47,960 nucleotides of DNA. It comes from Methanosarcinales archaeon. Lineage in GTDB: Archaea; Halobacteriota; Methanosarcinia; Methanosarcinales; Methanogasteraceae. Location: assembly GCA_030672605.1 (NCBI GenBank), contig DAOVGE010000017.1, positions 1 to 47,960 on the forward strand, written 5' to 3'. The notes beneath the pieces are model-generated. The model saw nothing but the letters and a program-made list of their open reading frames with translations, was not told the DNA's origin and did not search any database. Shown here one piece after another: positions 11,153 through 37,302 of this stretch (position 1 is its first letter; each line of letters opens with the position of its first letter). A program made the translations under genes and the position numbers.

Positions 11153-11402
11153 TTTTATTCTCCATGTTTTATTCCGGGATAGCTCTTCTGCACCGATGCC
11201 CCATTTAGCAGAATGGGTGCTCGTGTTACCCATACAAAACAGCGAAGAACCCAACAATCCCACTTGTAGCATTCGCCCATCCACGAAATTCGTATTATAT
11301 ACTTTGTTTAAAATCAGAGAGCAGTCGAGCACGAATGTCTCTCCTGCTAATGGATAACACAATTATCATCCAATGACCCCAATCTTCGATTTCACCGTCC
11401 AA

Positions 11403-11840: not shown

Positions 11841-11980
11841 TCGTACGTCACCATACCAATTTTCGTAATTCTTCGGAAACATTGCGGACGATTTTCGCAC
11901 CACAACGTTATGCATTCGTGATGTAGTGTCAATAGATTGTGAACCATAAAAAGGTGGCTATCCGGTATCTTGCGTGACAG

Positions 11981-20164: not shown

Positions 20165-20202
20165 GGGAGAGGGTGCTGCAGCAGAGGATACTTGAGAATT
20201 GC

Positions 20203-20368
20203 TGATTCTGATGGATTCTGTGGTTTCCAACCTTTGCGCCCTTGCGCCCTCGCGTCTTTGCGTTTCTCTGATTTAACGCAGAGACGCAAAGACGCAGGAG
20301 TGGCGCCCGCGATTGCTGCAACACGAGGGTGGGCTACTGCTATCGACCACAGAAAACGGCAGAACCAG
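20203..20368 (+). mobile_element. MITE family 1, copy A
   Basis: Perfect 9-bp TSD GAGAATTGC (20194-20202 and 20369-20377). TIRs are tgattctgatggattctgtggtttcc / gaccacagaaaacggcagaaccag. Hairpin core is gcgtctttgcgt...acgcaaagacgc. Confidence 0.85.
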
Positions 20369-20836: not shown

Positions 20837-21012
20837 CTGGTTCTGACGTTTTCTGTGGTCGCTAACGGTAGCTCCCTCGCGTATGCAAAAAAACGCGGGC
20901 GCATCGCCCCCAACTTTGCGCCTTTGTGACCTTGCGTTAGATCAGATGAACGCAAAGACGCGATGACGCAAGGGCGCAAAGATTGGAAACCACAGAATCC
21001 ATCAGAATCAGG
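20837..21012 (-). mobile_element. MITE family 1, copy B (inverted)
   Basis: ctggttctgacgttttctgtggtc ... ggaaaccacagaatccatcagaatca. Very similar to copy E. The flanking GAAAAAC-containing duplication is imperfect. Confidence 0.8.
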
Positions 21013-21110
21013 AAAAACCCGCGAGATTAACACAGAAATCTTGTGGGGATGGCTGCGCCGCTGCTTCGCAGACTGTGTAACCTTGTGGTTAGCTAAACAT
21101 GTACCCTACC
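21013..21110 (-). repeat. Truncated family-3 repeat abutting MITE-1 copy B
   Basis: gagattaacacagaaatcttgtgg...ggctgcgccgctgcttcgcagactgtg matches the reverse complement of 30250-30320. Confidence 0.55.
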
Positions 21111-21156
21111 CGTATCTCACTTTTTGGTTCACTGAAAAGAAGCAAGGATGCGGAAA

Positions 21157-21245
21157 CGCCCGGACCGGGATTCGAACCCGGGGCGGAGCCTTTCTGCCTG
21201 TGTTAGTCGACAGGGCTCCATGCTAGGCCTCTACACTATCCGGAC
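21157..21245 (-). tRNA. tRNA-Asp (anticodon GUC) with 16-nt intron at the canonical 37/38 position
   Basis: Manual fold: acceptor GTCCGGA/TCCGGGC; D arm GTGT..GCAT; anticodon stem GAGCC/GGCTC; loop CTGTCG|intron|A; T arm CCGGG TTCGAAT CCCGG; discriminator G; no encoded CCA. The intron is ACTAACACAGGCAGAA (21192-21207) and forms a bulge-helix-bulge. Confidence 0.8.
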
Positions 21246-21282
21246 AATCGTTGGTAGGACAAGAGATGGATTAGCTGTCGAT

Positions 21283-21295
21283 ATCATTTAAACCT
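21283..21295 (-). promoter_or_regulatory. Possible TATA box for the tRNA gene
   Basis: The minus strand reads ggtttaaatgat about 40-50 nt upstream of the tRNA 5' end. Confidence 0.3.
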
Positions 21296-21322
21296 TTTGC
21301 ATCTGGCTTTCCGGAACTTCTG

Positions 21323-22888
21323 TCACTGCCACCCGTAGACCTCAACGACATCGTTATTGTTCGCCGCCACATAGCAGGTCAGGTTGCCTGTTATGTACTC
21401 TCTTATGCTGGGTCTCAGCTTGTACCACCCCGTCGCATCCACGATGACCCAGCCCCGGTCATGCTCACCCACCACTTTCTTGAACGTCTCAACATCGGTT
21501 ATCGCGGTGGCGTTGGTGTATCTCTCCCTCATGGTGCCTCTGACAAGCGAGTTCTCCATCCCTTTTCCCACCATATTGAACGCCAGCCAGTAATCGCTCT
21601 TTCCGAGATAAAACTGGGTAGGCGGAGTCCACGCTGATACGATTGCATCATCGGGGTTCATATTATCCGCAACATATCTGTATGAAGTCCTGAAATCTGG
21701 CTGGGGTGCATTGGAACCAAGGTCGTATCGTTCCTTCGGCATGACGGTGAATGCTGGCGAGATAAACATCGCAGAGAGCAGCATGAGTGCAACAATCACG
21801 TTTACGATCGTCCCATCTGAATCACGGGAATCCTTTCGGGTCTGGCTGTCCGCGCTTCTGAGGGCGCTTCTTGAGTATTCGATTACAAAATCAAGGAAAT
21901 ATCCTATGAGAATGAAGAGTATCGGGATCACAAAGTAGAGATATCTGGTTCCAAGGAGAAGGACGTGATAGAATATGAAATAGAGCGGGATTATGAGTGC
22001 GGCTATCAGAAGCAAACCCTTCCTCCAGTCCCGGTTCATAAGCACGGTTCCGCCCGGAACTGCAACAAACAGGAAGAACCCCAGATCTTTCTTCAGAAAA
22101 TAGATATATGTGTCATAATAATCAATCTCCGTCTGGAGCGCCATAGATATGATCCCCTTATGGTACGCAAATCCGGAGATAACCGAAAACACGAGCACAA
22201 AGAGGGCAGCGGCTTTAATATTCACCCCCCTCAGCGATCCAAGACTCCACTCCCACTCCTGGAGTGTAGAGATTACAAGGTACAGCACAAAGACCGGTAT
22301 CAACGCATAAGCGAATACATGACTCAGTATTGCGCCTTCAACCGATAAAGTCAGCAATGCAAGAGATTTTATGCTTTTATTTCTGGTAAACTCGTAAAAC
22401 AGGTATAATGACAGGATATAGAAGAACTGTAGTTGCTGATACATTCTCGCCTGCCTCGACCACGCAATCTCCCAGACCGAGAATGCGACCAGGACTGCTG
22501 CAATGATTCCGATCCGGCTGTTTCCCCACCGGGATCCGATGAGATATACCAGCGGTATCGTCAGCGTTCCGAAGATCACGCTTGGGATGCGTGCTGCTGA
22601 CTCGGTTACGCCAAATATCGTAAAAGATAGCGCTATCAGTGCGGTGTTGAGTATCCCGCGTGTGTACGCCACGCCTGAGCGGAAGACTGCGGTTCCCGTA
22701 TCCAGAATCGCGGTTGCCGCAATCGAACTGATCGCCTCGTCGATCCAGAATGACTGGGAACCGAGATCATACATCCTCAGAATGAAGCCGGATGCCGTCA
22801 AAAGAACCACGATTAGCCATGGATACTTCTCTTTTGCAATCGGAGTCATCGAACCTCGCTCACAGCATAAATATGTCCCTTGTGGCAC
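21323..22888 (-). CDS. GT39/ArnT-like (PMT_2) membrane glycosyltransferase
   Basis: Polytopic membrane protein with the early-loop motif QSFWIDEAISS typical of dolichyl/undecaprenyl-phosphate-sugar transferases, plus a C-terminal soluble domain. The start may be Met14 (22849). Confidence 0.7.
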   Translation of the reverse strand: MPQGTYLCCERGSMTPIAKEKYPWLIVVLLTASGFILRMYDLGSQSFWIDEAISSIAATAILDTGTAVFRSGVAYTRGILNTALIALSFTIFGVTESAARIPSVIFGTLTIPLVYLIGSRWGNSRIGIIAAVLVAFSVWEIAWSRQARMYQQLQFFYILSLYLFYEFTRNKSIKSLALLTLSVEGAILSHVFAYALIPVFVLYLVISTLQEWEWSLGSLRGVNIKAAALFVLVFSVISGFAYHKGIISMALQTEIDYYDTYIYFLKKDLGFFLFVAVPGGTVLMNRDWRKGLLLIAALIIPLYFIFYHVLLLGTRYLYFVIPILFILIGYFLDFVIEYSRSALRSADSQTRKDSRDSDGTIVNVIVALMLLSAMFISPAFTVMPKERYDLGSNAPQPDFRTSYRYVADNMNPDDAIVSAWTPPTQFYLGKSDYWLAFNMVGKGMENSLVRGTMRERYTNATAITDVETFKKVVGEHDRGWVIVDATGWYKLRPSIREYITGNLTCYVAANNNDVVEVYGWQ

Positions 22889-22962
22889 ATAACTGTTAGC
22901 TCATCCCACATCCTGTTCCGCACCCCCACAAGGTTTATGTCCATACCATTCAATTTCAGTTC

Positions 22963-24444
22963 ATGAAAAAGAATGTGCAGCAGCCACAACTTCCTCCGAA
23001 GGCTGAGTTCAGTGCGTGGTATCACGAACTGCTTGCTGCTGCAGGGATCATGGATGTCAGGTATCCGGTAAAAGGTCTCTATGTGTGGCCCCCCTTCGGT
23101 TTTGGGCTGCGCAACAAGATCTATTCGATCATCCGGGAACTTCTTAACAGAGATGGTCATGAAGAGGTTTTGTTTCCGCTTTTAATTCCTGAAAATGAGT
23201 TTATGAAGGAAGCGGAGCACATAAAGGGGTTTGAGGACGAGGTTTATTGGGTCACGCACGGCGGCACCACTCCGCTGGAGATGAAACTCGCGCTCAGACC
23301 AACAAGCGAGACTGCAATCTACCCGATGTACAAACTCTGGGTTCGCTCGCATGCAGACCTGCCTATGAAGCTGTATCAGGTTGTGAACACCTTCAGATAC
23401 GAGACCAAACATACCCGCCCGCTCATCCGCCTGCGTGAGATCACGTCGTTTAAGGAGGCGCATACCGTGCACACCGACTGGGATGATGCTGCAAAGCATG
23501 TGGACCGGGCAATTGAGATTTATCAGGAGTTTTACAGGCGACTCGCAGTCCCGACCATCGTTTCGAAGCGTCCTGACTGGGATAAGTTCCCTGGCGCGGA
23601 TTATACGCTCGCGGTCGATACTCTGATGCCTGATGGCAGGGTTCTGCAGATCGGAACAGCACACCACCTCGCAGACAAATTCGCAAAGACGTTCGAGATC
23701 ACCTATGAGGATATAAACGGCGAGCAGGTCTACGCGCACCAGACCTGCTACGGGATCTCGGAGCGATCAGTTGCAGCCACAATCAGCATACACGGCGATG
23801 ATCGCGGGCTTGTGCTGCCGCCGGAGATCGCACCGGTCCAGGTGGTGATAATTCCGGTTCTCTTTGGCGAGCCCGATGTGAATGAAAAGGTGCTCGATTC
23901 TTGCAGGTCTCTTCGTGACGCGCTTGTGGACGCGCACGGAATACGTTCGAGAATTGATGATGGTGACGAGCGACCCGGCGCCAAATACTACAGATGGGAA
24001 CTACGAGGCGTTCCGATAAGAATCGAGATTGGTCCGAGAGACCTTGCACAGAACTCTGCCATGCTGGTTCGCAGAGACACATCCGAGAAGCGATCAATTC
24101 TGATCGAAGAGGTCGCACGCGAGGTTGCGGATTGCATGGATGCGATGCGTACTGATATGTATCGTGCTGCATCGCAGGAACTCAATTCAAGAATATTTGA
24201 TTGCGAGACACTGGATGAGGTGAAAGAGAAGAGTGCGCACGGGATTGCGCGCATCTCATGGTGTCTCGATCGCAACTGTGGACTCGAGATGGAAGATATA
24301 ACCGGTATTCACCTACTCGGAATTCCTACCGGCTCACAGCAATCGACATCCGCAGGACCTGGACCGGGGCAAGTATCCGAACAAGGACGGTGTCCGATCT
24401 GCGGAAGAGAGGGCACAGCGGTGCTGATGGCTCGGACATATTAA
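22963..24444 (+). CDS. proS: Prolyl-tRNA synthetase (archaeal/eukaryal type)
   Basis: FSAWYHELL...[18 protein letters not shown]...LRPTSET...FRYE class II motifs, and a C-terminal Zn-binding CPICG. Confidence 0.9.
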
Positions 24445-24489
24445 CAGTAATATTAACAGTAACGAATAAAGTGAGGGATTCATATCAGA

Positions 24490-25215
24490 TTGAAGAAACG
24501 AACCGTTTTGCGGAAGACACACGGAAATAGCGAGAGTGATGCAAGCAATGTGAGCAATAGTGATGCGAGTAACGAGGGTAACGGGAACGATGTATCTAAT
24601 GAGAGTAGTGGACACGTATCCGAACAAAGCAGCAGCAGCAACGTCGCATCAGAACGTTCTGGTGCATTCGTGATCCCGGGCGATTTCATAGGGACGACAG
24701 AGGAGTTTCGTGCTGGTGAATCGACCTACGAAAAGATGGGCGGCATCTACGCAGCCACCACCGGAACGACCAGAGTCGACCAGGCACACAGGTCAGTCTC
24801 TGTGTTTCCAAGAACAGACGTCCCTCCGTTTCTCAGAAGAGGGGATGTGATCGTCGGACAGGTGACCGGACTGCGCGAATCACTCGCGATGGTTGCAATC
24901 GCTGGCGCAAAAGGTGTCGCCGACCGGGAGATCGCGAATGCGGCGCCCGCGGTCGTCCATGTCTCCAACATCAAGAGGGCGTACGTCAAGGATATCACGA
25001 ACGAGTTCGGATTGTTCGACATCATCAAGGCGAAGGTGATCGACATCAAGAACATGCGCCTCGACACGTCCGAATCGGACATGGGTGTGATGAAGGCATT
25101 CTGTTCAAGCTGCAGAGCCCCGATGAAACTGAATGATTCGAAGCTCAAGTGTTCTGAGTGCGGAAAGATCGAGACACGGAAGTTGGCTTCCACTTATGGA
25201 ACCGGCATTATATAA
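24490..25215 (+). CDS. csl4: Exosome complex RNA-binding subunit Csl4
   Basis: VIPGDFIGTTEEF N-domain, an S1-like middle domain, and a C-terminal Zn ribbon CSSCRAP...CSECG. The first about 60 codons are Ser/Asn/Asp low complexity after a TTG start. GTG 24670 is a plausible true start. Confidence 0.8.
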   Translation: MKKRTVLRKTHGNSESDASNVSNSDASNEGNGNDVSNESSGHVSEQSSSSNVASERSGAFVIPGDFIGTTEEFRAGESTYEKMGGIYAATTGTTRVDQAHRSVSVFPRTDVPPFLRRGDVIVGQVTGLRESLAMVAIAGAKGVADREIANAAPAVVHVSNIKRAYVKDITNEFGLFDIIKAKVIDIKNMRLDTSESDMGVMKAFCSSCRAPMKLNDSKLKCSECGKIETRKLASTYGTGII

Positions 25216-25232
25216 CCGACGATAGAGAGATC

Positions 25233-25832
25233 ATGGACGCGGACTTACTCGACGAAAAATTGAGTAAAGCAGTCGAAAGGATCGATTCATTGGACGAATC
25301 CGAGAAAGTCAAATTTGTAATCCAGTATGGTTCGTCGGTGGATAGTACGATGAGGGATGGCTCAGATATCGATCTGGCAATCTATTACGATTGCAAAGAC
25401 GATAGTGAACCGTCCCGATACAGATTTGAAGTGATCTACAATCTTTCTGATGATGTTTACGACATTCAGATCTTTCAACAGCGCCCCCTGTACGTGAGAA
25501 TAGAAGTTCTAAAAGGGAATGTGGTCTGCTGCAGAGATCGAAACTTTCTGATTCTGATGGATTCTGTGGTTTCCAATCTTTGCGCCATTGCGTCATCGCG
25601 TCTTTGCGTTCTCGTTCGCCAGTTTAACGCAAAGGTGCAAAGGCGCAGAGACGCAAAGGTAGGGGCGGGATGCCCGCGATTTTCCGCATACGCGAGGGGG
25701 TTCCCACATCGACCACAGAAAACGTCAGAACCAGGAAACTTTCTGTACGATGTAGCGTGGCAGACGATAAAAGAATTTAATGGGTTCAAACACCGATACT
25801 ACGATTATATCGGAGAGAGGCGCATCGTATGA
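25233..25832 (+). CDS. Minimal nucleotidyltransferase (MNT/antitoxin-type) carrying an in-frame MITE insertion
   Basis: QYGSSVDSTMRDGSDIDLAIYY is a GS-x(n)-DxD nucleotidyltransferase motif. Codons 25549-25743 derive from MITE-1 copy C plus its TSD. The frame stays open to 25832. Confidence 0.65.
   Translation: MDADLLDEKLSKAVERIDSLDESEKVKFVIQYGSSVDSTMRDGSDIDLAIYYDCKDDSEPSRYRFEVIYNLSDDVYDIQIFQQRPLYVRIEVLKGNVVCCRDRNFLILMDSVVSNLCAIASSRLCVLVRQFNAKVQRRRDAKVGAGCPRFSAYARGFPHRPQKTSEPGNFLYDVAWQTIKEFNGFKHRYYDYIGERRIV
25549..25734 (+). mobile_element. MITE family 1, copy C (inside a CDS)
   Basis: Perfect 9-bp TSD GAAACTTTC at 25540-25548 and 25735-25743. The termini tgattctgatgg.../...cagaaccag are the same as in copy A. 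Confidence 0.85.
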
Positions 25833-25874
25833 GGACGAGTCTCATAAGAACAGAAATTTTTGGAGCGTGTTTCT

Positions 25875-26795
25875 ATGAAGATCATGGTCGCCGAGTACGC
25901 GGTTGCAACCGGTGACCCCGAGATCTTCGGCGAAGGATGCGCCATGCTCTCGTCTCTTGCAAACAGCTTCAGCGCATGCGGGCATCAGGTGCAGTATCCC
26001 GCAAGAAGCTTAATCGCGGGAATCAAAGGGGATGCAGTCGAGTGCAGTGGCAGCGATTTCAGGGAATCAGTCGAGAGAATTGCGCGCATGAGCGACGCCG
26101 GAATCGTGATCGCTCCTGATGAGATTCTCGCTGATCTGACCAAAGTTATTGAGGCTAACACTGTCAATCTCGGCTGCCCTGAGAGGTCGGTTAGGGACTG
26201 CGCTGACAAGCTCGCGTGCTCACAGATTCTGTCAGCCAGCGGAATTGCAGTTCCTGAGATTGCCGATAATTTCGATAATTCCGGTGACGTCGAAGCGTAC
26301 GTGATCAAACCGAGATGGGGCTGTGCTTCTGACGGAATATCGATCGTGCATGAGAAAGTGCAGACCGACGATGATTTCATCATAACCGAGTTCGTTGCAG
26401 GAGAGCATCTGAGCGCAAGTCTGGTAATCGGAGAGAGCACGCTTCCGCTCACTGTGAACAGGCAGTATATTGAGATTGGTTCGGAAATCGCTTACAATGG
26501 TGGAATTGTGGCATACCCCACGCCACTCCGAGATGAGGTCATGAATGTCGCCGCGAGAGCCGCGCACGCACTCGGATGCAGGGGGTATGTCGGGCTCGAT
26601 ATCGTTGCAGGAGATGAACTGTACGTGGTGGATGTCAATCCGAGACCAACAACGTCGTTACTCGGAATCGCAAAAGTCATCGATTGCGAGATCGGGGATC
26701 TGATCCTCCGGGCAAGGTTCGGGGGACTCCCTGAATCAATCGGGGTATCCGGATCGTTCCGATTCACAAAAGCAGATCTTGTAGATTATGAATGA
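25875..26795 (+). CDS. mfnD: ATP-grasp ligase, probable tyramine-L-glutamate ligase of methanofuran biosynthesis
   Basis: ATP-grasp-like layout (YVIKPRWGCASDGI..., GYVGLDIV...VVDVNPRPT). It is convergent with and overlaps mfnB by 10 nt. The specific assignment is inferred from that neighbourhood. Confidence 0.55.
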   Translation: MKIMVAEYAVATGDPEIFGEGCAMLSSLANSFSACGHQVQYPARSLIAGIKGDAVECSGSDFRESVERIARMSDAGIVIAPDEILADLTKVIEANTVNLGCPERSVRDCADKLACSQILSASGIAVPEIADNFDNSGDVEAYVIKPRWGCASDGISIVHEKVQTDDDFIITEFVAGEHLSASLVIGESTLPLTVNRQYIEIGSEIAYNGGIVAYPTPLRDEVMNVAARAAHALGCRGYVGLDIVAGDELYVVDVNPRPTTSLLGIAKVIDCEIGDLILRARFGGLPESIGVSGSFRFTKADLVDYE

Positions 26796-27493
26796 TTCAT
26801 CTGCGCCATAAACTCCTCGACCAGTTCCTTCTTGATCTCGGAGCTCCGGTCGCCGCCGCAGACAACCCCGCGGATTCCGATTATGTCCGGATTGATGCGG
26901 TTCAACGCGTCTATGTCCTCAAACTTGATTGTTCCGGCGAGTGCAGTGGTGAGACCAAGCTTGCGAGAATCCTCCACGAACTTTGTCAACTCCTCTTCGC
27001 TCATATACTCGAATGTTGATCGTCCGTCTTTGATTCCGGTATCGATCATTACTACGTCAAAACCGACCTTTGCACCAATTTCAGGGAGTAACATCGGAGA
27101 AATGGAATTTATGCGCGTATAATCCGCATACGCGGCTGCCACTGCCATTTTGTTGGGATCGTAGTCTTTTATCGACTTTACAACCTTTGACAGCAGTTCT
27201 TCTGCCTGATCAACAGTCTGAATGTCGTACAACCCTATCTTGATGTAATCAGCGCCGGACGCTGCAGCGCCAAGCGCGGCAAGTGATGCCGTACCTGGTT
27301 TGAAATTAAAATCGCCAATCGTTGCGCTGACAGGTTTCTTTGATTCGATCTCCTCGATTACCGCGCGGATCATCCACGGGAAATTCGCGCCGAGAGACCC
27401 TTCCTTCGGGTTCTTCACATCGATTATATCGGCACCGCCGTCAAGCGCAGCTTTTGCCTCGACCGTGTTGATCGGGCTGACCAGTAGTTTCAT
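26786..27493 (-). CDS. mfnB: (5-formylfuran-3-yl)methyl phosphate synthase (DUF556 family)
   Basis: MKLLVSPINTVEAKAALDGGADIIDVKNPKEGSLGANFPW is typical of MfnB. 235 aa. Confidence 0.8.
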   Translation of the reverse strand: MKLLVSPINTVEAKAALDGGADIIDVKNPKEGSLGANFPWMIRAVIEEIESKKPVSATIGDFNFKPGTASLAALGAAASGADYIKIGLYDIQTVDQAEELLSKVVKSIKDYDPNKMAVAAAYADYTRINSISPMLLPEIGAKVGFDVVMIDTGIKDGRSTFEYMSEEELTKFVEDSRKLGLTTALAGTIKFEDIDALNRINPDIIGIRGVVCGGDRSSEIKKELVEEFMAQMNHS

Positions 27494-27669
27494 AATATGC
27501 CTCCAATTGTTGCACTGTTCACGCAGTGCGATATTCTGATGTAATCATCGTACCGGTTATATTTAACGGTGTCGGACGTGCCGTGGCTCGGACAAGCTTG
27601 CAAGCAAGGGCATACACAGTAAAGCATATAGCGGAATCGGGATTAGGCTAACATGGATGTGATTGCGGA

Positions 27670-28863
27670 ATGAAAGCGGTGATCCTTGCAGCAGGTGAAG
27701 GGACGCGAATGCGTCCGCTGACGAAAGCGTGCCCGAAGGTGATGCTCCCGGTTGCGAATAGACCAGTTCTAGAGGATATCCTGGTCTCTGCAAGAGATTC
27801 CGGGGTAGGCGAGTTCGTCTGCGTGGTCGGGTATATGGGCGATCTGATCAGGGATTACTTCGGAGACGGAAGTCGGTTGGGCATTCATATCGAGTATGTT
27901 GAGCAGAAAGAGCAGCTTGGAACCGCTCATGCGATAGAAACGGTTCGTGAGCTTGTGGAGGATCGTTTCATCGTCCTGAACGGGGATGCGATCGTTGGAT
28001 CGTCTGATCTCAAGACGCTCGCCAGTCGGAAGGAGGAGATCGCAATCGCGGTTACTGAGATTGCAAATCCTCTGGGCTACGGCGTTGTGAGGACCTTAGG
28101 TGATCGGGTGATCGAGATAATCGAGAAACCCAAGCAGGCAGTCTCGAATCTCGTGAATGCAGGAATCTATCTCTTCTCGGATGCAATCTTCGACGCAATC
28201 GAGAAGACCGAGCGATCGGTTCGCGGGGAGTATGAGATAACGGACGCAATTCAGGCGATTGTCAACGATTCCGATATTGATATCGGCTACTCTGTTCTGG
28301 ATACGTGGATTGACATCGGAAGACCATGGAATCTGCTGGACGCAAACGAATTCCTGCTATCGGAGCTCGATTCTGAGATTTCTGGCGAAATTGAACCCTA
28401 CGCCACATTGAATGGTTCTGTTGTGGTCGGGAAGGGTACGATAATCAGAAACGGCTCGTACATAACAGGACCGGTTACGATCGGGGAGAACTGCGACATC
28501 GGTCCGAACTGCTTTATCCGACCGAGTACGTCCATAGGAAACGATGTTCGCATCGGAAACGCTGTTGAGGTCAAGAACAGTATCGTCATGGACAACGCAA
28601 AGATCGGGCATCTCAGCTATGTCGGAGATAGCATCATCGGACGCAACTGCAACCTTGGCGCGGGAACAAAGATTGCGAACCTGCGGCACGATGGTAGAAA
28701 CATTCGCGTCGCTCTTGCGGGCGAGTCTGTTGATACCGGCAGAAGGAAACTCGGCGTTGTGATGGGCGATTACGTGCATACCGGGATTAACACGAGCATC
28801 AATGTCGGCGTGATAATGGATGCGGAGCAGAGCACGCATCCGGGCGAGATTGTGATGCGGTGA
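27670..28863 (+). CDS. glmU: Bifunctional sugar-1-phosphate nucleotidylyltransferase / acetyltransferase (archaeal GlmU type)
   Basis: MKAVILAAGEGTRMRPLT nucleotidyltransferase motif plus C-terminal left-handed beta-helix hexapeptide repeats (IGPNCFI..IGNDVRIGNAVEV..). Confidence 0.75.
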   Translation: MKAVILAAGEGTRMRPLTKACPKVMLPVANRPVLEDILVSARDSGVGEFVCVVGYMGDLIRDYFGDGSRLGIHIEYVEQKEQLGTAHAIETVRELVEDRFIVLNGDAIVGSSDLKTLASRKEEIAIAVTEIANPLGYGVVRTLGDRVIEIIEKPKQAVSNLVNAGIYLFSDAIFDAIEKTERSVRGEYEITDAIQAIVNDSDIDIGYSVLDTWIDIGRPWNLLDANEFLLSELDSEISGEIEPYATLNGSVVVGKGTIIRNGSYITGPVTIGENCDIGPNCFIRPSTSIGNDVRIGNAVEVKNSIVMDNAKIGHLSYVGDSIIGRNCNLGAGTKIANLRHDGRNIRVALAGESVDTGRRKLGVVMGDYVHTGINTSINVGVIMDAEQSTHPGEIVMR

Positions 28864-28906
28864 TTAAGGGCGGGGCGGGGCGCCTGAAAGACTTCATAAC
28901 CTCGAA

Positions 28907-28962
28907 CATGCTCAATACCCAGGGTATGAACCACAAGAGTACACAGATTTCCACAAGATTTC
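28907..28962 (+). repeat. Family-3 repeat, left half (interrupted)
   Basis: catgctcaata...ccacaagagtacacagatttccacaagatttc matches the left half of the intact copies at 30229 and 33781. Confidence 0.6.
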
Positions 28963-29325
28963 GAGACTTTTCATTATTTTCTGGAGACTGGTTGAATTAT
29001 GGCATCTATTTACAATTTCGGCATTCGTGCGATTCGTAAATTCGTGTCATTCGTGTTAAAATCACAACTAAGGGCTTGCCAAAAAATAACCTGTTAAAAT
29101 TCGTGTCATTCGTCCATTCGTGAAATTCGTGATAAAATCGGCAGAAGGGATCACGAATGGCACGAATAAACGAATCGCACGAATGTCAGGGATGTGGAGT
29201 GCCATCAGATAACTTTGCTACTTTATTTTTCGGCGAGCACTAAACGAATGACACAAATCCAATCGTTCTGAAAACGCACTCACAATTCTTTCAATTCCTC
29301 CTGACCTGAAAAATTAACAAGTCAT
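28963..29325. repeat. Composite insert: family-6 ends enclosing family-2 ATTCGTG/CACGAAT arrays
   Basis: It starts gagacttttcattattttctgg and ends ctgaaaaattaacaagtcat. Internally it has three arrays of 4 heptamers (29032-29065, 29106-29140, 29154-29187). AAGATTTC is duplicated at both junctions. Confidence 0.55.
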
Positions 29326-29397
29326 AAGATTTCTGTGTTAATCTTGTGTAATCTCGTGGTTTTGTATGCGGATATCAACACAATATTGAGTAAGTAC
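29326..29397 (+). repeat. Family-3 repeat, right half
   Basis: aagatttctgtgttaatcttgtgtaatctcgtggttttgtatgcggatatcaacacaatattgagtaagtac matches the right half of 30229-30372 and 33781-33911. Confidence 0.7.
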
Positions 29398-29451
29398 ATA
29401 GCCTCTGTTTCCAGCAATCCTTTATCCCCCAAAAGAGCCCCATTTCTCACC

Positions 29452-30207
29452 ATGCACAGAGTAATCGACGAGATACTGGAGTTGACACGGCGCAGAGTCG
29501 CTGACATCCGCACTACAGATGTGCCTGAGAAAATCGAGCGCAGGGACGTGATTCAACTGATACGATCTCGCAAGCAAGAAAACAAGATCCCTGTCATTTC
29601 CGAGGTGAAACCCGGCTCACCAACGATTGCGAAGCGCGACATAACCCCCGACGATGCAGCAAGAATTGCGCGGGAGATGGAGGCAGCCGGTGCAGTGGCG
29701 ATCTCTGTCTTGACAGAGCCGGATTTCTTCTACGGGAGCCTGGAAAATCTCTCTGCAGTTCGAAGGTCGGTTACAATACCGGTATTGAGAAAAGACTTCA
29801 TAATCGATTACAAACAGATATATGAAACCGAAAGTGATCTTATATTGCTGATCGCCGGCATACTCGGGGAGGATCTTTGCAGGTTTGTCGATCTGTCTCT
29901 TGCGCGTGGGCTGGAGCCACTCGTGGAAGTGCATAACGAAACCGAGCTTGTGGATGCGCTCGATACGAAGACAAGGATCATCGGCATCAACAATCGGGAT
30001 CTTTCGACGCTCACAATCGACCTATCGACAACAGAACGTATGATTCCGATGATTCCGGACGACAGGATCGTAATCGGCGAGAGCGGGGTCAGAAACTCGG
30101 CAGATGCGGCTCGTGTGATCAACGCAGGAGCGGATGCGATTCTTGTCGGGACTGCGATCATGGACGCCCCGTTCGAGCGGACCAAAGAGCTGGTTGGCGC
30201 GCTTTAG
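29452..30207 (+). CDS. trpC: Indole-3-glycerol-phosphate synthase
   Basis: IPVISEVKPGSPT, ISVLTEPDFFYGS, VLRKDFI, EVHNETEL and IGINNRDL are the TrpC signature blocks. The start is taken at ATG 29452 because the upstream part of ORF 29335 is repeat-derived. Confidence 0.85.
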   Translation: MHRVIDEILELTRRRVADIRTTDVPEKIERRDVIQLIRSRKQENKIPVISEVKPGSPTIAKRDITPDDAARIAREMEAAGAVAISVLTEPDFFYGSLENLSAVRRSVTIPVLRKDFIIDYKQIYETESDLILLIAGILGEDLCRFVDLSLARGLEPLVEVHNETELVDALDTKTRIIGINNRDLSTLTIDLSTTERMIPMIPDDRIVIGESGVRNSADAARVINAGADAILVGTAIMDAPFERTKELVGAL

Positions 30208-30228
30208 TCTGGCGGGCGTCGTATTTGT

Positions 30229-30372
30229 GCATGCGCAATAACTTGTGATAGGAGCCACAAGATTGCACAGTCTGCGAAGCAGCGGCGTAGCCATCTTCAC
30301 AAGATTTCTGTGTTAATCTTGCGTAATCCCGTGGTTTTATACGCGGATATCCGCACAATATTGAGTAAGTAC
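30229..30372 (+). repeat. Family-3 repeat, full copy
   Basis: catgcgcaataacttgtg ... cacaagatttctgtgttaatcttgcg ... cacaatattgagtaagtac, with an internal extra segment tctgcgaagcagcggcgtagccatctt. Confidence 0.75.
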
Positions 30373-30469
30373 TCGTATTCCGTGTGTTCGGGCGATTATT
30401 CACGAGTTGACCGTCCAATCTCCCATGTAACTGAAATATAATATGTGATTAAAAATAGATTACAAACGG

Positions 30470-30883
30470 ATGCCGATTGACAAGCGACGCGCTGAACAGT
30501 ACAGATCCAAAATCAGGTACATCCTTGAACATGTGCATGCCATTCCCAAAGACGTCGGGACCATGGATGAACGGTCCATCGAGGAGGTGCTGTACCGGGT
30601 GCAGACCAGTATCGATGCTGCAGCGGACATGGCTGCGATGCTGGTACAAGACAGAGGAGTTTGTGCCGGCGACCGTTACGAGAACATCGATCTCCTTGTG
30701 GCGAAGCATGAAATCAACCGGAGGTTTGCACAGAAGCTCAGGGTACTGAATGTCATGAGAAACGCAACCGTTCAGGAATATGGGGTGCTTGACGGTGTTC
30801 TGGTGCTTGGGAACATCGAAGAGATCAAAAGAATACTTTTCGCATTCATAAAACAGATCGAGGCTAAACTGGATGCGCCCTGA
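30470..30883 (+). CDS. DUF86 / HepT-like HEPN protein with altered catalytic motif
   Basis: 137 aa and helical. The expected RNxxxHxY motif reads MRNATVQEY, with His replaced by Gln. Confidence 0.6.
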   Translation: MPIDKRRAEQYRSKIRYILEHVHAIPKDVGTMDERSIEEVLYRVQTSIDAAADMAAMLVQDRGVCAGDRYENIDLLVAKHEINRRFAQKLRVLNVMRNATVQEYGVLDGVLVLGNIEEIKRILFAFIKQIEAKLDAP

Positions 30884-30986
30884 CATCGATATCGAATTCG
30901 ACCGCCCCTTCCTGCGGGACTATGAGGTTGTCGTCTTCGGTTCTTATGCGAGCAGGACAATAAATACTAGACTTGTTGCGATATAA
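30873..30986 (+). pseudogene. Truncated MNT-type nucleotidyltransferase remnant
   Basis: MRPDIDIEFDRPFLRDYEVVVFGSYASRT... runs into a MITE after 30 codons. Its ATG overlaps the DUF86 stop. The DxD catalytic part is absent. Confidence 0.5.
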
Positions 30987-31092
30987 AATTCTATAAAATA
31001 CAGCCTTCTAAGGCGTCCATTGCTCCGTGCATATTGCTCCTTTTTACGAATATCCCTTCTCAGGGCTTTTCCAAATTATTTCGCAACAAGTC
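30970..31092. mobile_element. MITE family 4 (TA-flanked)
   Basis: Perfect 12-bp TIR gacttgttgcga / tcgcaacaagtc, flanked by TA on both sides (30968-30969 and 31093-31094). The interior is AT-rich. Confidence 0.6.
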
Positions 31093-31135
31093 TACTGATC
31101 GAGCGGTATAATCAGCACAAACAGCAACAGCACGA

Positions 31136-32332
31136 TCAGATCTCGTAGATCACATCGATTCCTCTGCGCACCTTCGAGATCTCGTTGCCCATGCGGAACA
31201 ACTTGTTTTTATCAATTTTATACCCGCATAGTTGTTCTACGAACCAGAGCGTCTTCAGATGATCTTCTGCGCTCAATTTCCAGTCCGCTTTGTCCTCCGG
31301 ATAATCCATGCCACCAGCGTAGGCGAGCAGTTCGAGGCGTGCAGTCTCGCTGATCCAGCCGATCTCGACGTAATAATCGAGAATGCTCGGCAGATTGTTC
31401 GGTCCGACCAGTTCGAGCAGAAAATCGAGCAGTTCCATCGCAACCATGACCTGGTCTGCCTCGTTTCCCACGGAGTTCAGTTTCACGCATGTGGGTGGGG
31501 GCACGATCTCGACCTCGACCTCGGCAGCCCCGAATGCTGCCGCTTTCGCCTCTTCAGCCTCTGCTGCCGCGGTAATGAGATTCTCAACATCACCCTCTAT
31601 TGATGAGATGGTTGTGCGCGTAAAATCGAGACTTGCTGCCAAATCCGATATTTCTGATCTATTACAACCGACTGACTCCTGCAGTCCGTCCAGTCTTCCG
31701 GAAAAATCGGCTTGCTGCGAAAATATCCCTGATACTACATCCCCGACATCAGAGATGACCGAAATCACTTCGTCTGACCGCGCCTCCATCGTTATCATGG
31801 ATACGCCATTCTTTGAGAGCCTCTCCTCGATTTCTTGCAGATTCTTCCTTAGATCGTCGATGTCTGAGCGGTCGATTGCTGGTTCGTTTGCAATTTCCGG
31901 CTCTTCTGATGATGCGGGCATATAGTAAACAGCCTCGGTGAGCTCTGAAAACGCTGCCACAACCTTGTCGACCTGCGTCGCAATCGAGGAAATATCCTCC
32001 CTGATCGCCGCAATCTCGCCGCTAAAATCCTGTCGGGCACTGATGGGCTCGGGTACTGATTCAGTGACCGGTTCCGAAAAATCCGGAGGGGGGAGGGGGG
32101 AATCAAAGAGTTCTTGAGGCATTGTTTCAGCGTCGCCGCTGAGATCTAATTCAGGAGGAACCTCTGCGACCTCGTGCTGAGCGGATGGTGAATCAACGAC
32201 TGTGGGTGGTTGCGAATATTTTGATATTCTACCTCGAAGCTCACCGGTTCTCGTGATTCGCCTCAGAGCCGCACGCAGCACAGATGATATACTATCTTTA
32301 ATCCTGGTGGCTGCAGGAGTTGTCTCATCCAT
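31136..32332 (-). CDS. FlaD/FlaE-domain (archaellum accessory-like) protein with acidic coiled N-terminal region
   Basis: The C-terminal about 110 aa, LLDFLLELVGPNNLPSILDYYVEIGWISETARLELLAYAGG...HLKTLWFVEQL, resembles the archaeal FlaD/E domain. Confidence 0.55.
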   Translation of the reverse strand: MDETTPAATRIKDSISSVLRAALRRITRTGELRGRISKYSQPPTVVDSPSAQHEVAEVPPELDLSGDAETMPQELFDSPLPPPDFSEPVTESVPEPISARQDFSGEIAAIREDISSIATQVDKVVAAFSELTEAVYYMPASSEEPEIANEPAIDRSDIDDLRKNLQEIEERLSKNGVSMITMEARSDEVISVISDVGDVVSGIFSQQADFSGRLDGLQESVGCNRSEISDLAASLDFTRTTISSIEGDVENLITAAAEAEEAKAAAFGAAEVEVEIVPPPTCVKLNSVGNEADQVMVAMELLDFLLELVGPNNLPSILDYYVEIGWISETARLELLAYAGGMDYPEDKADWKLSAEDHLKTLWFVEQLCGYKIDKNKLFRMGNEISKVRRGIDVIYEI

Positions 32333-32368
32333 TCGATTCCCCGATATGTTATATATCGTTGAATGGAT

Positions 32369-33346
32369 TTAAACGCTTTGGTCTGTTAAGTGCAAAACAC
32401 CAGCCAATTCCGCTCGCAGCTCTCCGAGCGTGGCACACCGCTCGGCACACGCGTTATGCTGGTGGATACTCTCCTCGTTGATCTGTTTGAGCGAGATCAG
32501 GGAATCGTCAGGCAGGCGCGGGAACTCCTTCACGATCGAATGCGCCATCGCGCGGACACAGTCCTCCACAAATCTCGGAGTCCGGTGCGCGACATCAACC
32601 ACCGCCGCCTCATCGGATCGTTTGAGCAGTTCGAATATCGTAGAACTCATTGAGGACTCGATGACGTCGATCAACTTCGCGAGCGGCACATCGTACCGAT
32701 CGTGAACCTCTATAGAGATTGTTCCCCGCCCGCGCTGGTTGTGGGTTGCCATAGGGACTCGGATCAGGAACTGGGCGATCGTGGCGTCGGGAACGCCGAG
32801 CTCGACCAGTTCATTCCTTGCACGGTCCCGCATAATCTCCTGCGCACAAGGGCATGCAGTCATCCCGAGTACCTCCGCGCCAACGAGTTTTCGGACCCTG
32901 ATGTCGCCACCATCCGACCTGATTGCGACCGCCTCTGCGAAGATGTCGACCACGCTCTGGCAGTTCATGTGTGTCACCGGGGTCTCCCGCTTGACCACGT
33001 ATTCGCTCTTCATCTGCACCTCGGCGCGAGATGCATACTCGTGCTTGGTTAAGAGGCGGCGTGCGACAATACCGCACAATTCCTCTATTTCATATACCGG
33101 AGCCTTGACCGCCTCCTCCAAGACCTCATCAATGGTCTCAAAGTTTCTCGAAAGGTTTGCGCCCTTGCGATCTGGCGGCAGGTCCACAAATATGTTAAAT
33201 CTTGCGATGAGTACGATCGGGCGCTTGCCCTTGCGTGCAATCTCAATCAGCTTCTTGACGTCGGTTACGCCAACACGTGTCAGGTTGATCGGGATTGCAG
33301 GTCTGGTTGCCTGAATATCCGGAAGTTCGACCACTGGTAGTTTCAT
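32369..33346 (-). CDS. mptA: GTP cyclohydrolase MptA (FolE2 family; methanopterin pathway)
   Basis: [35 protein letters not shown] and MATHNQRG blocks. The start is taken at Met24 ([10 protein letters not shown]). Confidence 0.8.
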
Positions 33347-33571
33347 GTCAGTCTTCTCCAGTACTGGTGATTCGGTTCTGTGCTGTATGGCGTCAATATA
33401 TAAATCTTGCGGCACCCTGGGTGAAATTTTTTGATTTCTTCTGGCCGGTTGAAAATATAATGAACCGTAGATTAACGCGAATGAACGCGGATTTGTTCAT
33501 AGGTATCTGCGTAAATCTGCGGAGGATGAGATTGAAGGAAATCATTGCAGCCAGAAAATATTAAAAAATCG

Positions 33572-33761
33572 CTGGTTCTGTTGTTTTCTGTGGTCGATGG
33601 CAGTAGCCATTACGTGTGTAGAAATCGCGGGCGTCACTCCTTCGTCTCTGCGTCTCTGCGACTTTGCGTTAAATCAGAGAAACGCAAAGACGCGAGGGCG
33701 CGAAGAATGAAAAATCACTTATTCCGGCATCTTTTGAAAACCACAGAATCCGTTAGAATCA
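33572..33761 (-). mobile_element. MITE family 1, copy D (inverted, with internal extra segment)
   Basis: ctggttctgttgttttctgtggtc ... aaaaccacagaatccgttagaatca. Flanks are AAAAAATCG / GAAAAATCG (8 of 9 identical). Confidence 0.8.
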
Positions 33762-33780
33762 GAAAAATCGCCCCGGGGTA

Positions 33781-33911
33781 CATGCTCAATAACTTGTTAT
33801 AGGAACCACGAGATTACACAGATTTGCACAAGATTTCTGTGTTAATCTTGTGTAATCTCGTGAAATCTCGTGGTTTTATATGTGAATATCCACACAATAT
33901 TGGGTAAGTAC
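33781..33911 (+). repeat. Family-3 repeat, full copy
   Basis: catgctcaataacttgttatagg, then CACGAGATTaCACAGATTTgCACAAGATTT, then ctgtgttaatcttgtgtaatctcgtg ... cacaatattgggtaagtac. Confidence 0.75.
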
Positions 33912-34039
33912 ACCTATAGATAGTGTCAACCCAACACTGGCGTTATATCGATCACACATCAGCACAAGCCCATGCGAATGCCAATTTTACAGGCAGGGAC
34001 TGCTCCCGTGTTCGGATTCGCTGACATGCGCAGATGGAC

Positions 34040-34047
34040 TTTTATAT
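34040..34047 (+). promoter_or_regulatory. Possible TATA box of the KaiC-like/GTPase operon
   Basis: ttttatat lies about 50 bp upstream of ATG 34096. A GGTG Shine-Dalgarno-like box lies about 9 nt before the ATG. Confidence 0.35.
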
Positions 34048-34095
34048 GAAGACGTACAATCAACTAAATGAGCGAATGAAGCAGGTGCGGTTTCT

Positions 34096-34788
34096 ATGGC
34101 ATACAATCTCGGCATACCGAAACTAGATGATTTGATCGGGGATATCAGGGGTGGTACGAACATCATGATGATTGGTCCCCCTATGAGTGGGAAAGAGGAT
34201 CTCATAAACATCATCGCATACCGGGGGTTGGTCGATCGCGATGCTGCCGTAATCGTCTCGACGCGGGAGCCAGGAAACAACGTGCTCGAATGGTTCGAAC
34301 GGCGTAACCTGAACATCTCGATGGATAGAATTGGGATTGTGGACTGTGTTACGCGCACCCTCGGGTTTGCCGCACCCGATACCGAGAACATCAAGATGGC
34401 GTCAAGCCCGGTTGATCTCACAGGCATTGGTGTCAAGATCAGCCAGTTCTTTGAACATTTCTGGATGGAGATGCAGCTCAGGGAGACGAGACTGTGCATC
34501 AACTCGCTATCAACGATTCTGATGTACTCGAACCTGCAGACCGTGTTTCGGTTTTTGCACGTCTTCACAGGTCGTATCAAGGCAGCAAATGCGCTCGGCG
34601 TCTACGTGATTGAGGAGGGGATGCACGATGCGCAGACGATTGTGACATTGAAGCAGTTGTTTGATGGCATGATTGAGATAAGGGAAGGGGATGATGGTTA
34701 TCAAATACGGGTTGTCGGGCTCACGCCGAAGCCAACGCCGTGGTTTGATTATGAAGTCAATGGTGTAGATGTTGTACTACGGGGTTAG
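34096..34788 (+). CDS. KaiC/RecA-like protein with degenerate Walker A
   Basis: GIPKLDDLIGDIRGGTNIMMIGPPMSGKE shows the KaiC-type N-terminal layout, but the P-loop ends GKE instead of GK[ST]. Confidence 0.75.
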   Translation: MAYNLGIPKLDDLIGDIRGGTNIMMIGPPMSGKEDLINIIAYRGLVDRDAAVIVSTREPGNNVLEWFERRNLNISMDRIGIVDCVTRTLGFAAPDTENIKMASSPVDLTGIGVKISQFFEHFWMEMQLRETRLCINSLSTILMYSNLQTVFRFLHVFTGRIKAANALGVYVIEEGMHDAQTIVTLKQLFDGMIEIREGDDGYQIRVVGLTPKPTPWFDYEVNGVDVVLRG

Positions 34789-35966
34789 TGAATATGATAG
34801 AGACAGGGATACCGAAGCTAGATGGTTATTTACACGGAGGTGTTCCGGAAGGAAGATCTCTTGTGTACTATACGTACCCCGGCGTAGCTGGTGATGTTTT
34901 CGGGATGCAGACGATATGCCACGCCACATCGAACGGTATACTGGGAGTCTATGTCGCATCCAGTACCGATCCGCAGATGATCCGGGATCAGTTCAGCGAG
35001 TTCGGGTGGGCTACTGAGGACTATAATGGCAGGTTCATTGTGGTGGACGCGTTCTCAGGGCTGATCGGCGCGGATTCGCAGGAACGGTATGTCGTGTCCG
35101 ATCCGGAGGATGTCAACAGCCTGACCCAGTGTATCAAGAAGGTGATGGAAGAGATGAGCGAACCCGGAATCATCGTCTTCGAATCACTCTCGACGATCAT
35201 GGACCTGTGCGGGGAGTCTGAGACCCTTGATGCGCTTGAGGAGTGGAGCCAGTACGCAATGCTCTACGATCATGCGCTGGTTTACAATTTCACGGCATGG
35301 CCCTATTCCGAAGAGACGCTGCTGCACGTGAAGGAGAATGTTTGCAATTCCGTCATCTCTGTTGGTGGAATTACTGGAGACGTTATTTTCGGGCAGTATT
35401 TTGGGGTGCTGAAGGTGGATTGGACGGACATTGCACGGAAAAGCACGTTGTTCAAGGTTTTGAAGCCCGGCGGCATACGCGCGTACATCCCGAAGATACT
35501 GGTCACGGGACCGTTTGATGCTGGCAAATCAACGTTCGTACACGCACTCTCCAACAGGGCGATCTCAGTGGATCGGCTTGGCACAACGATCGCGCTTGAT
35601 CATGGGCATGTGGATCGCAAAGGGTTTGCCGCAGATATATTCGGAACCCCTGGGCAGGAACGGTTCGATCCGATCGTGAAACTGCTCAGCGGAGAGGCAA
35701 TGGGTATATTCCTCCTCCTCGACTCGACAAACACCACTGATTTTAAGAGGGGCAAGCGCATGCTTGAAATCACGGAGTCGTTCGGTCTGCCGGTTGTGAT
35801 CGTCGCAAACAAGCAGGACATGTCAGAAGCGCTCACGCCGGAGGAGATCAGAAGAGAACTGGATATGCCAGCGAATGTACAGATCATGCCCGCGGTTGCA
35901 GCCACCGGAGAGGGCGTCTTCGAGGCATTCGAGACACTGGTCGATATGGTAATGGAGGTGGACTGA
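34788..35966 (+). CDS. Fusion protein: degenerate KaiC-like domain plus small GTPase (CvnD/MglA-like, COG2229-type)
   Basis: The N-domain GIPKLDGYLHGGVPEGRSLVYYTYPGVAGDV has lost the P-loop Lys and Thr. The C-domain has G1 GPFDAGKST, G3 FGTPGQ and G4 NKQD. The GTG start overlaps the upstream stop, with ATG 34794 as an alternative. Confidence 0.8.
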   Translation: MNMIETGIPKLDGYLHGGVPEGRSLVYYTYPGVAGDVFGMQTICHATSNGILGVYVASSTDPQMIRDQFSEFGWATEDYNGRFIVVDAFSGLIGADSQERYVVSDPEDVNSLTQCIKKVMEEMSEPGIIVFESLSTIMDLCGESETLDALEEWSQYAMLYDHALVYNFTAWPYSEETLLHVKENVCNSVISVGGITGDVIFGQYFGVLKVDWTDIARKSTLFKVLKPGGIRAYIPKILVTGPFDAGKSTFVHALSNRAISVDRLGTTIALDHGHVDRKGFAADIFGTPGQERFDPIVKLLSGEAMGIFLLLDSTNTTDFKRGKRMLEITESFGLPVVIVANKQDMSEALTPEEIRRELDMPANVQIMPAVAATGEGVFEAFETLVDMVMEVD

Positions 35967-35967
35967 G

Positions 35968-36330
35968 ATGTCGACATCAGAAATGCTCGGAAAAGTGCTC
36001 GCCGGTCTCGGAAAGGTTGGAGAGATTGAGGCGAGTGCGATATCAACACGGGACGGGCTCCTCATGAATGCGGATATGCACGCCGCTGGCGATCCGGAGA
36101 CTTTTGTTGCAATGTCGGCAACGATGCTCGGCGCAGCAGAGACCGCAACATCCGAACTGGGCAAGAGTGTGCCGAACCGGGTAATCGTGGAGACCGACGA
36201 CGGGAAATTGATATGCATGGGCGCAGGACCAAAAGCGCTAGTGGTTGTGATGACCGCACCGGATGCCGGGCTCGGTCTGGTGCTTGTAGAGATGGCGAAA
36301 GCCGCAGAAAAGATCGAGAGACTGATATGA
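35968..36330 (+). CDS. Roadblock/LC7 (MglB/CvnB-like) protein
   Basis: 120 aa. LAGLGKVGEIEASAISTRDGLLM...VIVETDDGKLICMGAGPKALVVVM is the typical Roadblock pattern. Confidence 0.8.
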   Translation: MSTSEMLGKVLAGLGKVGEIEASAISTRDGLLMNADMHAAGDPETFVAMSATMLGAAETATSELGKSVPNRVIVETDDGKLICMGAGPKALVVVMTAPDAGLGLVLVEMAKAAEKIERLI

Positions 36331-36536
36331 AACCTTTAATCAACATCGGGAAGAACGGAGTTACTGACCAGGTCATTGATGAGATCAGAGAGCAGATGAA
36401 TGGAAAAAGCGAAATCAAGATACGGATCCTCAAAAATGCGCCCGATAGCGCGTCTGTTGTCGCAGAAGAGGTTGCATCGAGGACCGGGTTCAAACTTGGG
36501 GATGTGCGCGGGCACACTGCGGTTCTTGCACGGTGA
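36327..36536 (+). CDS. YhbY/CRS1-type (CRM domain) RNA-binding protein
   Basis: 69 aa, MKPLINIGKNGVTDQVIDEIREQM...IKIRILKN. An ATGA overlap joins it to the Roadblock gene. Confidence 0.7.
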   Translation: MKPLINIGKNGVTDQVIDEIREQMNGKSEIKIRILKNAPDSASVVAEEVASRTGFKLGDVRGHTAVLAR

Positions 36537-36873: not shown

Positions 36874-36948
36874 TACTGGTATGGCGATTTCACTGGAACA
36901 ATCGACCGTGCCCCATAACCCAAGTCACCCGGAAGAGATTAAAAATCC

Positions 36949-37131
36949 TGATTCTGATGGATTCTGTGGTTTCCAATCTTTGCGCCCTTGCGTCATCGCG
37001 TCTTTGCGTTCATCTGATCTAACGCAAGGTCGCAAAGGTATGAGAGACGCAAAGTTGAGAGAGATGCGCCCGCGTTTTTTTGCATACGCGAGGGAGCTAC
37101 CGTTAGCGACCACAGAAAACGTCAGAACCAG
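36949..37131 (+). mobile_element. MITE family 1, copy E
   Basis: tgattctgatggattctgtggtttcc ... gaccacagaaaacgtcagaaccag. Flanks are TAAAAATCC / TAAAAAGCC (8 of 9 identical). Confidence 0.85.
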
Positions 37132-37170: not shown

Positions 37171-37273
37171 CATTCGTGCAATTCGTACCATTCGTACCAT
37201 TCGTGTTCTAATGCTGCTGATTTTAAACAAAATATATAACGCAAATTTCACGAATGCCACGAATACCACGAAT
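37171..37273. repeat. Family-2 palindromic repeat directly upstream of kinase 1
   Basis: cATTCGTGcaATTCGTAccATTCGTAccATTCGTG, a loop containing aaaatatataac, then ttCACGAATgcCACGAATacCACGAAT. Confidence 0.8.
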
Positions 37274-37302
37274 TTGACTCTCACAGAGTTGTGGGGGGAT
37301 TT

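Follow-up and report, generated by a model that had tools for sequence, protein, structure and literature searches.

An in-frame MITE insertion in an orphan, probably decaying mntA-like antitoxin gene of an uncultured methane-oxidising archaeon

A gene for an mntA-like minimal nucleotidyltransferase in the window (the whole stretch of 47,960 nt analysed here) has been entered by a MITE that, together with its target site duplication (TSD), adds 65 codons and leaves the reading frame open. The element belongs to a dispersed family, its target is empty in close relatives, and the toxin gene that accompanies mntA at orthologous loci has been deleted. The most likely reading, to which we give a probability of about 75%, is a chance in-frame insertion in a dispensable, decaying orphan antitoxin gene, which would now be a very young pseudogene. 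As the empty site, the TSD and sibling elements are all in hand, this is a clean and reconstructable case of a MITE landing in coding sequence of an uncultured methane-oxidising archaeon.

Geometry of the insertion

The interrupted ORF begins with the ATG at 25233 and ends with the TGA at 25830–25832 (Table 1). Its translation, ...VVCCRDRNFL / ILMDSVV...KTSEPG / NFLYDVAWQTIKEFNGFKHRYYDYIGERRIV and stop, runs from the host sequence ...KGNVVCCRDRNFL through 62 repeat-encoded residues to G-NFL-YDVAWQTIKEFNGFKHRYYDYIGERRIV, so that the 199-residue chimera has the junction peptides ...RDRNFLILMDSVV... and ...TSEPGNFLYDV.... A direct repeat, GAAACTTTCTG, is present at 25540–25550 and again at 25735–25745, a spacing of 195 nt. 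The extra CTG shared at the repeat belongs to the element, whose first three bases happen to equal the next host bases. The borders of element and TSD were set from alignments of the five window copies and of 33 full copies from other genomes. An earlier reading of this DNA, made from the sequence only, had described an insertion with a TSD, and this stands; it had placed the start of the element at 25549 with a 9 bp TSD, and here the alignments correct it to a start at 25548 and a TSD of 8 bp. Its count of 195 nt, or 65 codons without a stop, was repeated and is right, the length being a multiple of three. The sequence-only reading had also held that the allele before insertion can be recovered exactly, and it can: deletion of either 25549–25743 or 25548–25742 gives the same allele of 134 codons, whose junction (GATCGAAACTTTCTGTACGATG) is identical at every base to the empty site of the relative L005.

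Table 1. Coordinates of the interrupted gene, the inserted element and related features of the window
Feature	Position	Strand	Description	Evidence
mntA-like minimal nucleotidyltransferase ORF with MITE insert	25233..25832	+	199 codons plus stop	Pfam, Foldseek
Catalytic motif GSX10DXD	25329..25373	+	G33 S34 ... D45 I46 D47, intact	Translation
TSD, left copy	25540..25547	+	8 bp, GAAACTTT	Copy alignments; single copy in L005 empty site
MITE copy C	25548..25734	+	187 nt, CTG...CAG	Alignments of five window copies and 33 full copies elsewhere
Left terminal inverted repeat, copy C	25548..25570	+		19/23 positions match right end
GGGG run	25662..25665	+	Siblings imply GGG and a 186 nt element	P0076/P0077 peptides against copy C frames +0/+1
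Right terminal inverted repeat, copy C	25712..25734	+		Copy alignment
TSD, right copy	25735..25742	+	8 bp, GAAACTTT	Copy alignments
MntA C-terminal helix and stop codon	25743..25832	+	Cut off from the core by the insert	AlphaFold models
hepT remnant	25829..25855	+	MRTSLIRTE, 9 codons, ATGA overlap with mntA stop	Comparison with L005 1498–1914
MITE copy A	20202..20368	+	167 nt, TSD GAGAATTG, intergenic	Alignment
MITE copy B	20837..21011	-	175 nt, intergenic	Probe match, alignment
MITE copy D	33572..33762	-	191 nt, TSD CGATTTTT, intergenic; site empty in L001-L004	Alignment
MITE copy E	36948..37131	+	184 nt, intergenic	Probe match, alignment

The MITE family

The inserted element is a MITE: it is short (below about 500 bp), has no transposase gene, is bounded by terminal inverted repeats and a TSD of fixed length (8 bp), occurs as dispersed copies, and has an empty site in a relative. 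Its left terminal repeat, CTGATTCTGATGGATTCTGTGGT, agrees at 19 of 23 positions with the right end when the latter is reverse-complemented (CTGGTTCTGACGTTTTCTGTGGT). Five copies are present in the window, four of them intergenic (A, B, D and E) and one, copy C, intragenic. The termini are invariant in all five, and the ends of the family are CTGATTCTGATGGATTCTGTGG. A 62 nt probe from the element had three matches in the window, where shuffled sequences gave an expectation of 0. The range of the family was explored by scanning species-representative genomes with a degenerate 21 nt left-end pattern, which recovered at least 88 loci; among the matches listed nearly all are from ANME-2c, 'Ca. Methanogaster' or Methanosarcinales MAGs, and many lie at contig ends. 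The 33 full copies found elsewhere are 160–191 nt long (most commonly 187 nt), with an 8 bp TSD that is perfect in 22 and has one mismatch in another 4, and their targets are A/T-rich, often GAAnnTTn.

As RNA, copy C folds into a long hairpin (-87.2 kcal/mol, z = -7.3 relative to shuffles). Comparison of the element with Rfam gave nothing above the gathering thresholds, only sub-threshold hairpin look-alikes. An autonomous IS, that is, family ends 0.7–4 kb apart together with a transposase, was found neither in the window nor at about 100 loci; one pair of ends, at L082, was considered and rejected, since it encloses two ordinary ORFs and no transposase. The literature searched held no description of ANME-2c MITEs, and the family appears to be a previously undescribed and recently active one of ANME-2c genomes, where it fragments assemblies and inflates intergenic regions. 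Elsewhere in the window, at 9344–9433, lies a copy of the element's internal palindromic core, which is 84% identical to 25577–25658 and without recognisable terminal repeats; its 12 nt loop has the same length as that of copy C.

The host gene

The interrupted gene had been assigned from its ORF to the MNT-type nucleotidyltransferases, and profile and structure comparisons agree. The protein matches PF18765 (Polbeta, 6e-12) and PF01909 (4e-6), both passing the Pfam cut-offs, and its best NCBIfam model is the MntA equivalog NF047752, with a score of 45.5 bits that lies below the 60 bit cut-off. A direct phmmer search of PDB with the host protein returned no match. A profile of the family matches the MntA/MNT chains 5yep (2e-4), 7ae2 and 8xeh, and the top Foldseek matches of the AlphaFold model, at E = 8e-6, are the MntA chains in the MntA-HepT complexes 7bxo and 6m6v, together with the MNT antitoxins 7ae9 and 8xeh. 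The motif GSX10DXD, which defines the MntA adenylyltransferases (PMC7641770), is retained. Judged by these matches, the host gene encodes a Pol-beta/MntA-type minimal nucleotidyltransferase, which is the predicted antitoxin in a HepT/MntA module of type VII.

The AlphaFold model of the uninterrupted orthologue P0002 (mean pLDDT 88) has its last strand at residues 96–100, followed after two residues by a C-terminal helix (103–128). It is in this two-residue gap that the insert sits. When the fold was modelled with and without the insert, the core and the C-terminal helix were kept: in the window protein the core (residues 1–104) has a pLDDT of 88–96, the insert (106–170) is of low confidence (38–68), and the helix, now at 170–192, is still placed (83–93), a placement that reflects the alignment behind the model and not a measured stability. 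The 65 inserted residues include four cysteines, and are hydrophobic in the first third and basic thereafter.

Loss of the toxin gene

At the orthologous loci L005, L094-L096 and L100 a HepT-like gene (PF01934) lies directly downstream, its start overlapping the nucleotidyltransferase stop as ATGA. In the window about 411 nt are missing relative to L005, and only nine hepT codons are left before the start region of mfnD, so there is no adjacent PF01934 gene with the RX4HXY motif. The relatives differ widely in the state of hepT. Loci L094-L096 carry the gene with RX4HXY, intact in L095 as RNIMVHRY. The L005 gene (1498–1914) matches PF01934 (8e-23) and has the motif altered to RNIVVRRY, the catalytic His being replaced by Arg. 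In L097-L099 (3375–3821) the gene is split into pieces of 79 and 61 residues, and in L001-L004 its place is taken by about 150 nt of unrelated sequence with a hairpin, CCACAGAG...CTCTGTGG; the orphan mntA of L001-L004 is uninterrupted despite the loss of hepT. In a further protein, P0075 (85 residues), a deletion has joined an MntA N-terminus to a HepT C-terminus. From such comparisons, the HepT/MntA module apparently decays repeatedly in ANME-2 relatives at this conserved locus, which presents the decay in steps among relatives: intact motif, His-to-Arg change, split, replaced and deleted.

The remaining antitoxin gene shows unusual substitutions. Three of them, S69Y, F72S and L84R, introduce residues that none of the 62 homologues has, at positions whose conservation is 84%, 79% and 98%, respectively. 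With L004 as outgroup, 8 nonsynonymous and 6 synonymous changes fall on the window branch and 2 and 4 on the L005 branch, counts that are small and not significant alone. Omega between the window and L004 is 0.40 for mntA and 0.08–0.27 for seven neighbouring genes; mntA has the highest value of the eight, yet it is below 1. These sequence comparisons suggest that selection on the window mntA has been relaxed.

Why the frame is open

Openness is not a property of the family in general. Of the 198 translations of the 33 full copies (three frames in each orientation), 31 (16%) were free of stops, with no frame consistently open, and only 6.6% of the copy/orientation/frame combinations paired an absence of stops with a length, TSD counted, divisible by three. 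The frame used in copy C has 1–4 stops in copies A, B and E. Copy C avoids them by a loop longer by 5 nt and by other differences. The possibility that these differences evolved in place under selection was considered and rejected, as they are common to other members of a subfamily: the 12 nt loop variant and the downstream features recur in the truncated copy of L023, an unrelated locus, and near-identical sibling elements on other contigs encode two predicted proteins, P0076 and P0077 (LILMDSVVSNLCAL...LCVLVRQFNAKVQRRRDAKVG...). Because L023, P0076 and P0077 have the same features, the stop-free frame was inherited from the element subfamily, and the frame is open because the subfamily is stop-free there and 187 + 8 = 195.

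Coding use of the element is otherwise scarce. Its peptides in six frames, compared with 5.8 billion proteins, matched P0076, P0077 and P0078 only; the peptide of copy C itself recurs in the first two, both domain-free, and P0078 is an ORF with an AlbA_2 domain that continues at its end into a family copy. Other intragenic copies were sought by looking for an ORF across the empty site, a crude test with an excess of chance matches at about 50% G+C, of which Pfam confirmed only L007. Here (742–920) a copy lies out of frame inside an IS66 transposase gene (zf-IS66 by Pfam). At L090 (reverse strand, 5428–5614) a copy with a length in frame and two stops lies in a 222-codon ORF that has no Pfam match. 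Copy C is the sole clean in-frame case found for the family.

One further detail concerns the GGGG run. The P0076 and P0077 peptides switch at this point from frame +0 to frame +1 of copy C, and the shorter length of these siblings is inferred from the peptides. An insertion of 186 nt would have brought the ORF to a stop seven codons past the element, and the extra G of copy C restores the frame. The extra G may represent variation already present in the source copy, a neutral homopolymer indel, or a selected compensatory change. A single homopolymer indel restores a frame by chance about half the time.

Interpretation of the interrupted allele

The proposed course of events starts from a hairpin-forming, non-autonomous MITE that would be moved in trans by a transposase making 8 bp TSDs. 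The HepT/MntA module, which in this lineage lies between csl4 and mfnD, would already have been decaying or dispensable before the insertion, as suggested by the HepT of the closest relative, L005, without its catalytic His and by the deletion of hepT in the window, and the insertion would for this reason not have been selected against. The open frame would be a chance outcome without adaptation. The predicted product of 199 residues, if made, would have an intact catalytic core with a 65-residue wedge separating the C-terminal helix from the last beta-strand. With no toxin left to neutralise, the gene probably has no function and is most aptly described as a very young pseudogene or as a dispensable orphan. 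The sequence-only reading had mentioned a very young pseudogene as an alternative, and it is now the better supported one, given the deleted hepT, the radical substitutions at conserved positions and a frame that stems from the subfamily.

Several observations speak against decay. The ORF is fully intact and keeps all catalytic residues, omega is below 1 and the branch counts are small. L001-L004 keep an uninterrupted orphan mntA, so some residual use may exist, and the extra G relative to the 186 nt siblings could be a selected compensatory change. Such points can be assembled into a different account, in which the predicted chimera is made and kept by selection, in an exaptation like that of the RPEs of Rickettsia, with the insert as a tolerated surface excursion and the frame restored by +1 G after a 186 nt insertion. 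It would fit the 65 open codons with an intact catalytic motif, the location of the insert at a strand-to-helix junction, the C-terminal helix that AlphaFold still packs (pLDDT 83–93), the GGG of 186 nt siblings P0076/P0077 against GGGG in copy C, and the intact orphan of the hepT-less L001-L004. We nevertheless consider it unlikely. The toxin partner is deleted, three substitutions unseen in the family (including L84R) affect conserved core positions, and the omega of mntA is the highest in the neighbourhood. The insert is modelled with low confidence, with four cysteines and a hydrophobic start, and the packing of the helix is driven by the alignment and is no measure of stability. Nor does the element peptide behave as a recurrent coding module, with two domain-free occurrences among 5.8 billion proteins and no frame consistently open across copies, and a homopolymer indel repairs the frame by chance in about half of cases. 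The specific sequence in which a 186 nt element shifted the mntA frame, +1 G at 25662–25665 restored it under selection, and the orphan MntA with its 65-residue module is functional, is distinctly improbable. If true, selected frame restoration would amount to an archaeal parallel to the RPEs of Rickettsia at the moment of its origin, while relatives still preserve the unoccupied target. In practice, annotations of the 199-residue 'nucleotidyltransferase' should carry a flag that the gene is disrupted by a MITE.

The empty site in relatives

With the reconstructed protein as query, 75 homologues were collected, of 107–179 residues (mostly 125–135), and 62 were aligned. The insert is absent from all 62, down to 39% identity. 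The nearest, P0002 (92% identical) and P0003 (83%), come from the same locus as in the window, ProRS - Csl4 - NTase - ... - MfnD (ATP-grasp) - MfnB. At the DNA level the empty site consists of a single GAAACTTT in L005 and of AACACATT in L003 and L004, in relatives that are 93–94% identical to the window. The L001-L004 relative, which includes the Methanosarcinales MAG GCA_002506015.1, is 93% identical and collinear with the window over 21124–36436, and the alignment is interrupted by MITE copies C and D as well as by further small repeats. Copy C is absent from both L005 and L001-L004, and copy D is also absent from L001-L004. Since the elements are missing from a collinear relative with 93% identity, they were gained by the window lineage since a divergence of about 7%, in line with the recent mobility that had been claimed for copy C.

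It was also considered that a repeat-induced misjoin had put the MITE into the gene, so that the allele would be absent from cells. In favour of this, copies of the family are numerous and frequently lie at contig ends in MAGs, the 199-residue protein is found on one contig only, and metagenome scans for the same allele or further siblings with patterns specific to copy C gave 0 matches. A misjoin is nevertheless very improbable, as it would not create the perfect 8 bp duplication of host sequence, which is also seen in 22 of the 33 other copies, and relatives are collinear with the window on both sides of the element, over about 15 kb. That the 65 residues are ancestral protein sequence lost by all other homologues has next to nothing in its favour beyond the open frame, and is dismissed, as the segment is missing from 62 of 62 homologues (to 39% identity) and from the L005 empty site, and is an intergenic repeat of many genomes, bounded by inverted repeats and flanked by TSDs.

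Other repeats and features of the window

Two other small repeat families are present. One, with CATTCGTG / CACGAATG motifs, occurs at 1–115, 2769–2902, 11260–11317, 29021–29185 and 37217–37256; it forms a 34 nt inverted pair, 96 nt apart, at 29022–29185, and inverted arms of 115 nt (1–115 and 2769–2883) around an ABC-ATPase gene and a DUF166 gene. The other (TCATAAGATTTCTGTGTTAATCTTG...) is found at 21020–21088, 29322–29397, 30297–30372 and 33836–33911. The L001-L004 alignment breaks in the intergenic stretches with most of the copies of this third family, which suggests that these copies are also lineage-specific insertions. From 37291 to 47616 there is a run of large paralogous ORFs with 300 nt repeats at 39432, 42349 and 47317 (74–83% identical), the first of which (37291–40140) encodes a GAF/PAS histidine kinase. 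A BRO-N domain protein (9664–10530) lies at the edge of the stretch of lowest G+C (43% at 10001–12000, about 51% elsewhere), and the region 9664–12000 may be a viral or mobile remnant.

Comparison with known systems

The type VII HepT/MntA pairs of Shewanella oneidensis (SO_3165/SO_3166, PDB 5yep, 7bxo) and Thermococcus cleftensis (CL1_0070/0071, PMC7641770) have the Pol-beta minimal nucleotidyltransferase fold and GSX10DXD in common with the window gene, and loci orthologous to it likewise have a PF01934 gene with RX4HXY immediately downstream, with the ATGA overlap. Unlike these pairs, the window has lost its toxin gene so that no pair is left, its antitoxin scores below the MntA equivalog cut-off (45.5 against 60 bits), and it carries the 65-residue MITE insert.

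The sequence-only reading had presented the insertion as a rare prokaryotic case of coding sequence contributed by a MITE. This is not supported, as in-frame fusions by intragenic MITEs have been described as 'not unusual', with the RPEs of Rickettsia as the extreme case and ERIC and BOX elements as others (PMC10969869), and the chimeric product is predicted only. Like RPEs, intragenic ERIC and BOX elements and the MITEs of Anabaena (PMC10969869), copy C is a short, hairpin-forming, non-autonomous repeat lying in frame and stop-free in a coding gene, and like other MITEs that are read through it lies at a junction between secondary-structure elements. The differences from RPEs are considerable: RPEs share a conserved ORF and have entered many genes in frame, whereas 16% of frames are open in the present family and none consistently; its other intragenic copies (L007, L090) break their genes; it makes 8 bp TSDs, while RPEs are without clear target duplications; and its host is archaeal, of ANME-2c type. 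The archaeal MITEs of Sulfolobus (SM1-4), Halobacterium and Haloquadratum (PMC10969869) are likewise small, bounded by terminal inverted repeats, multi-copy, mainly intergenic and flanked by TSDs of fixed length, and differ in sequence family and host clade. Archaeal MITEs, intragenic read-through and decay of toxin-antitoxin modules are all known kinds of event, and the case in the window reveals no new mechanism.
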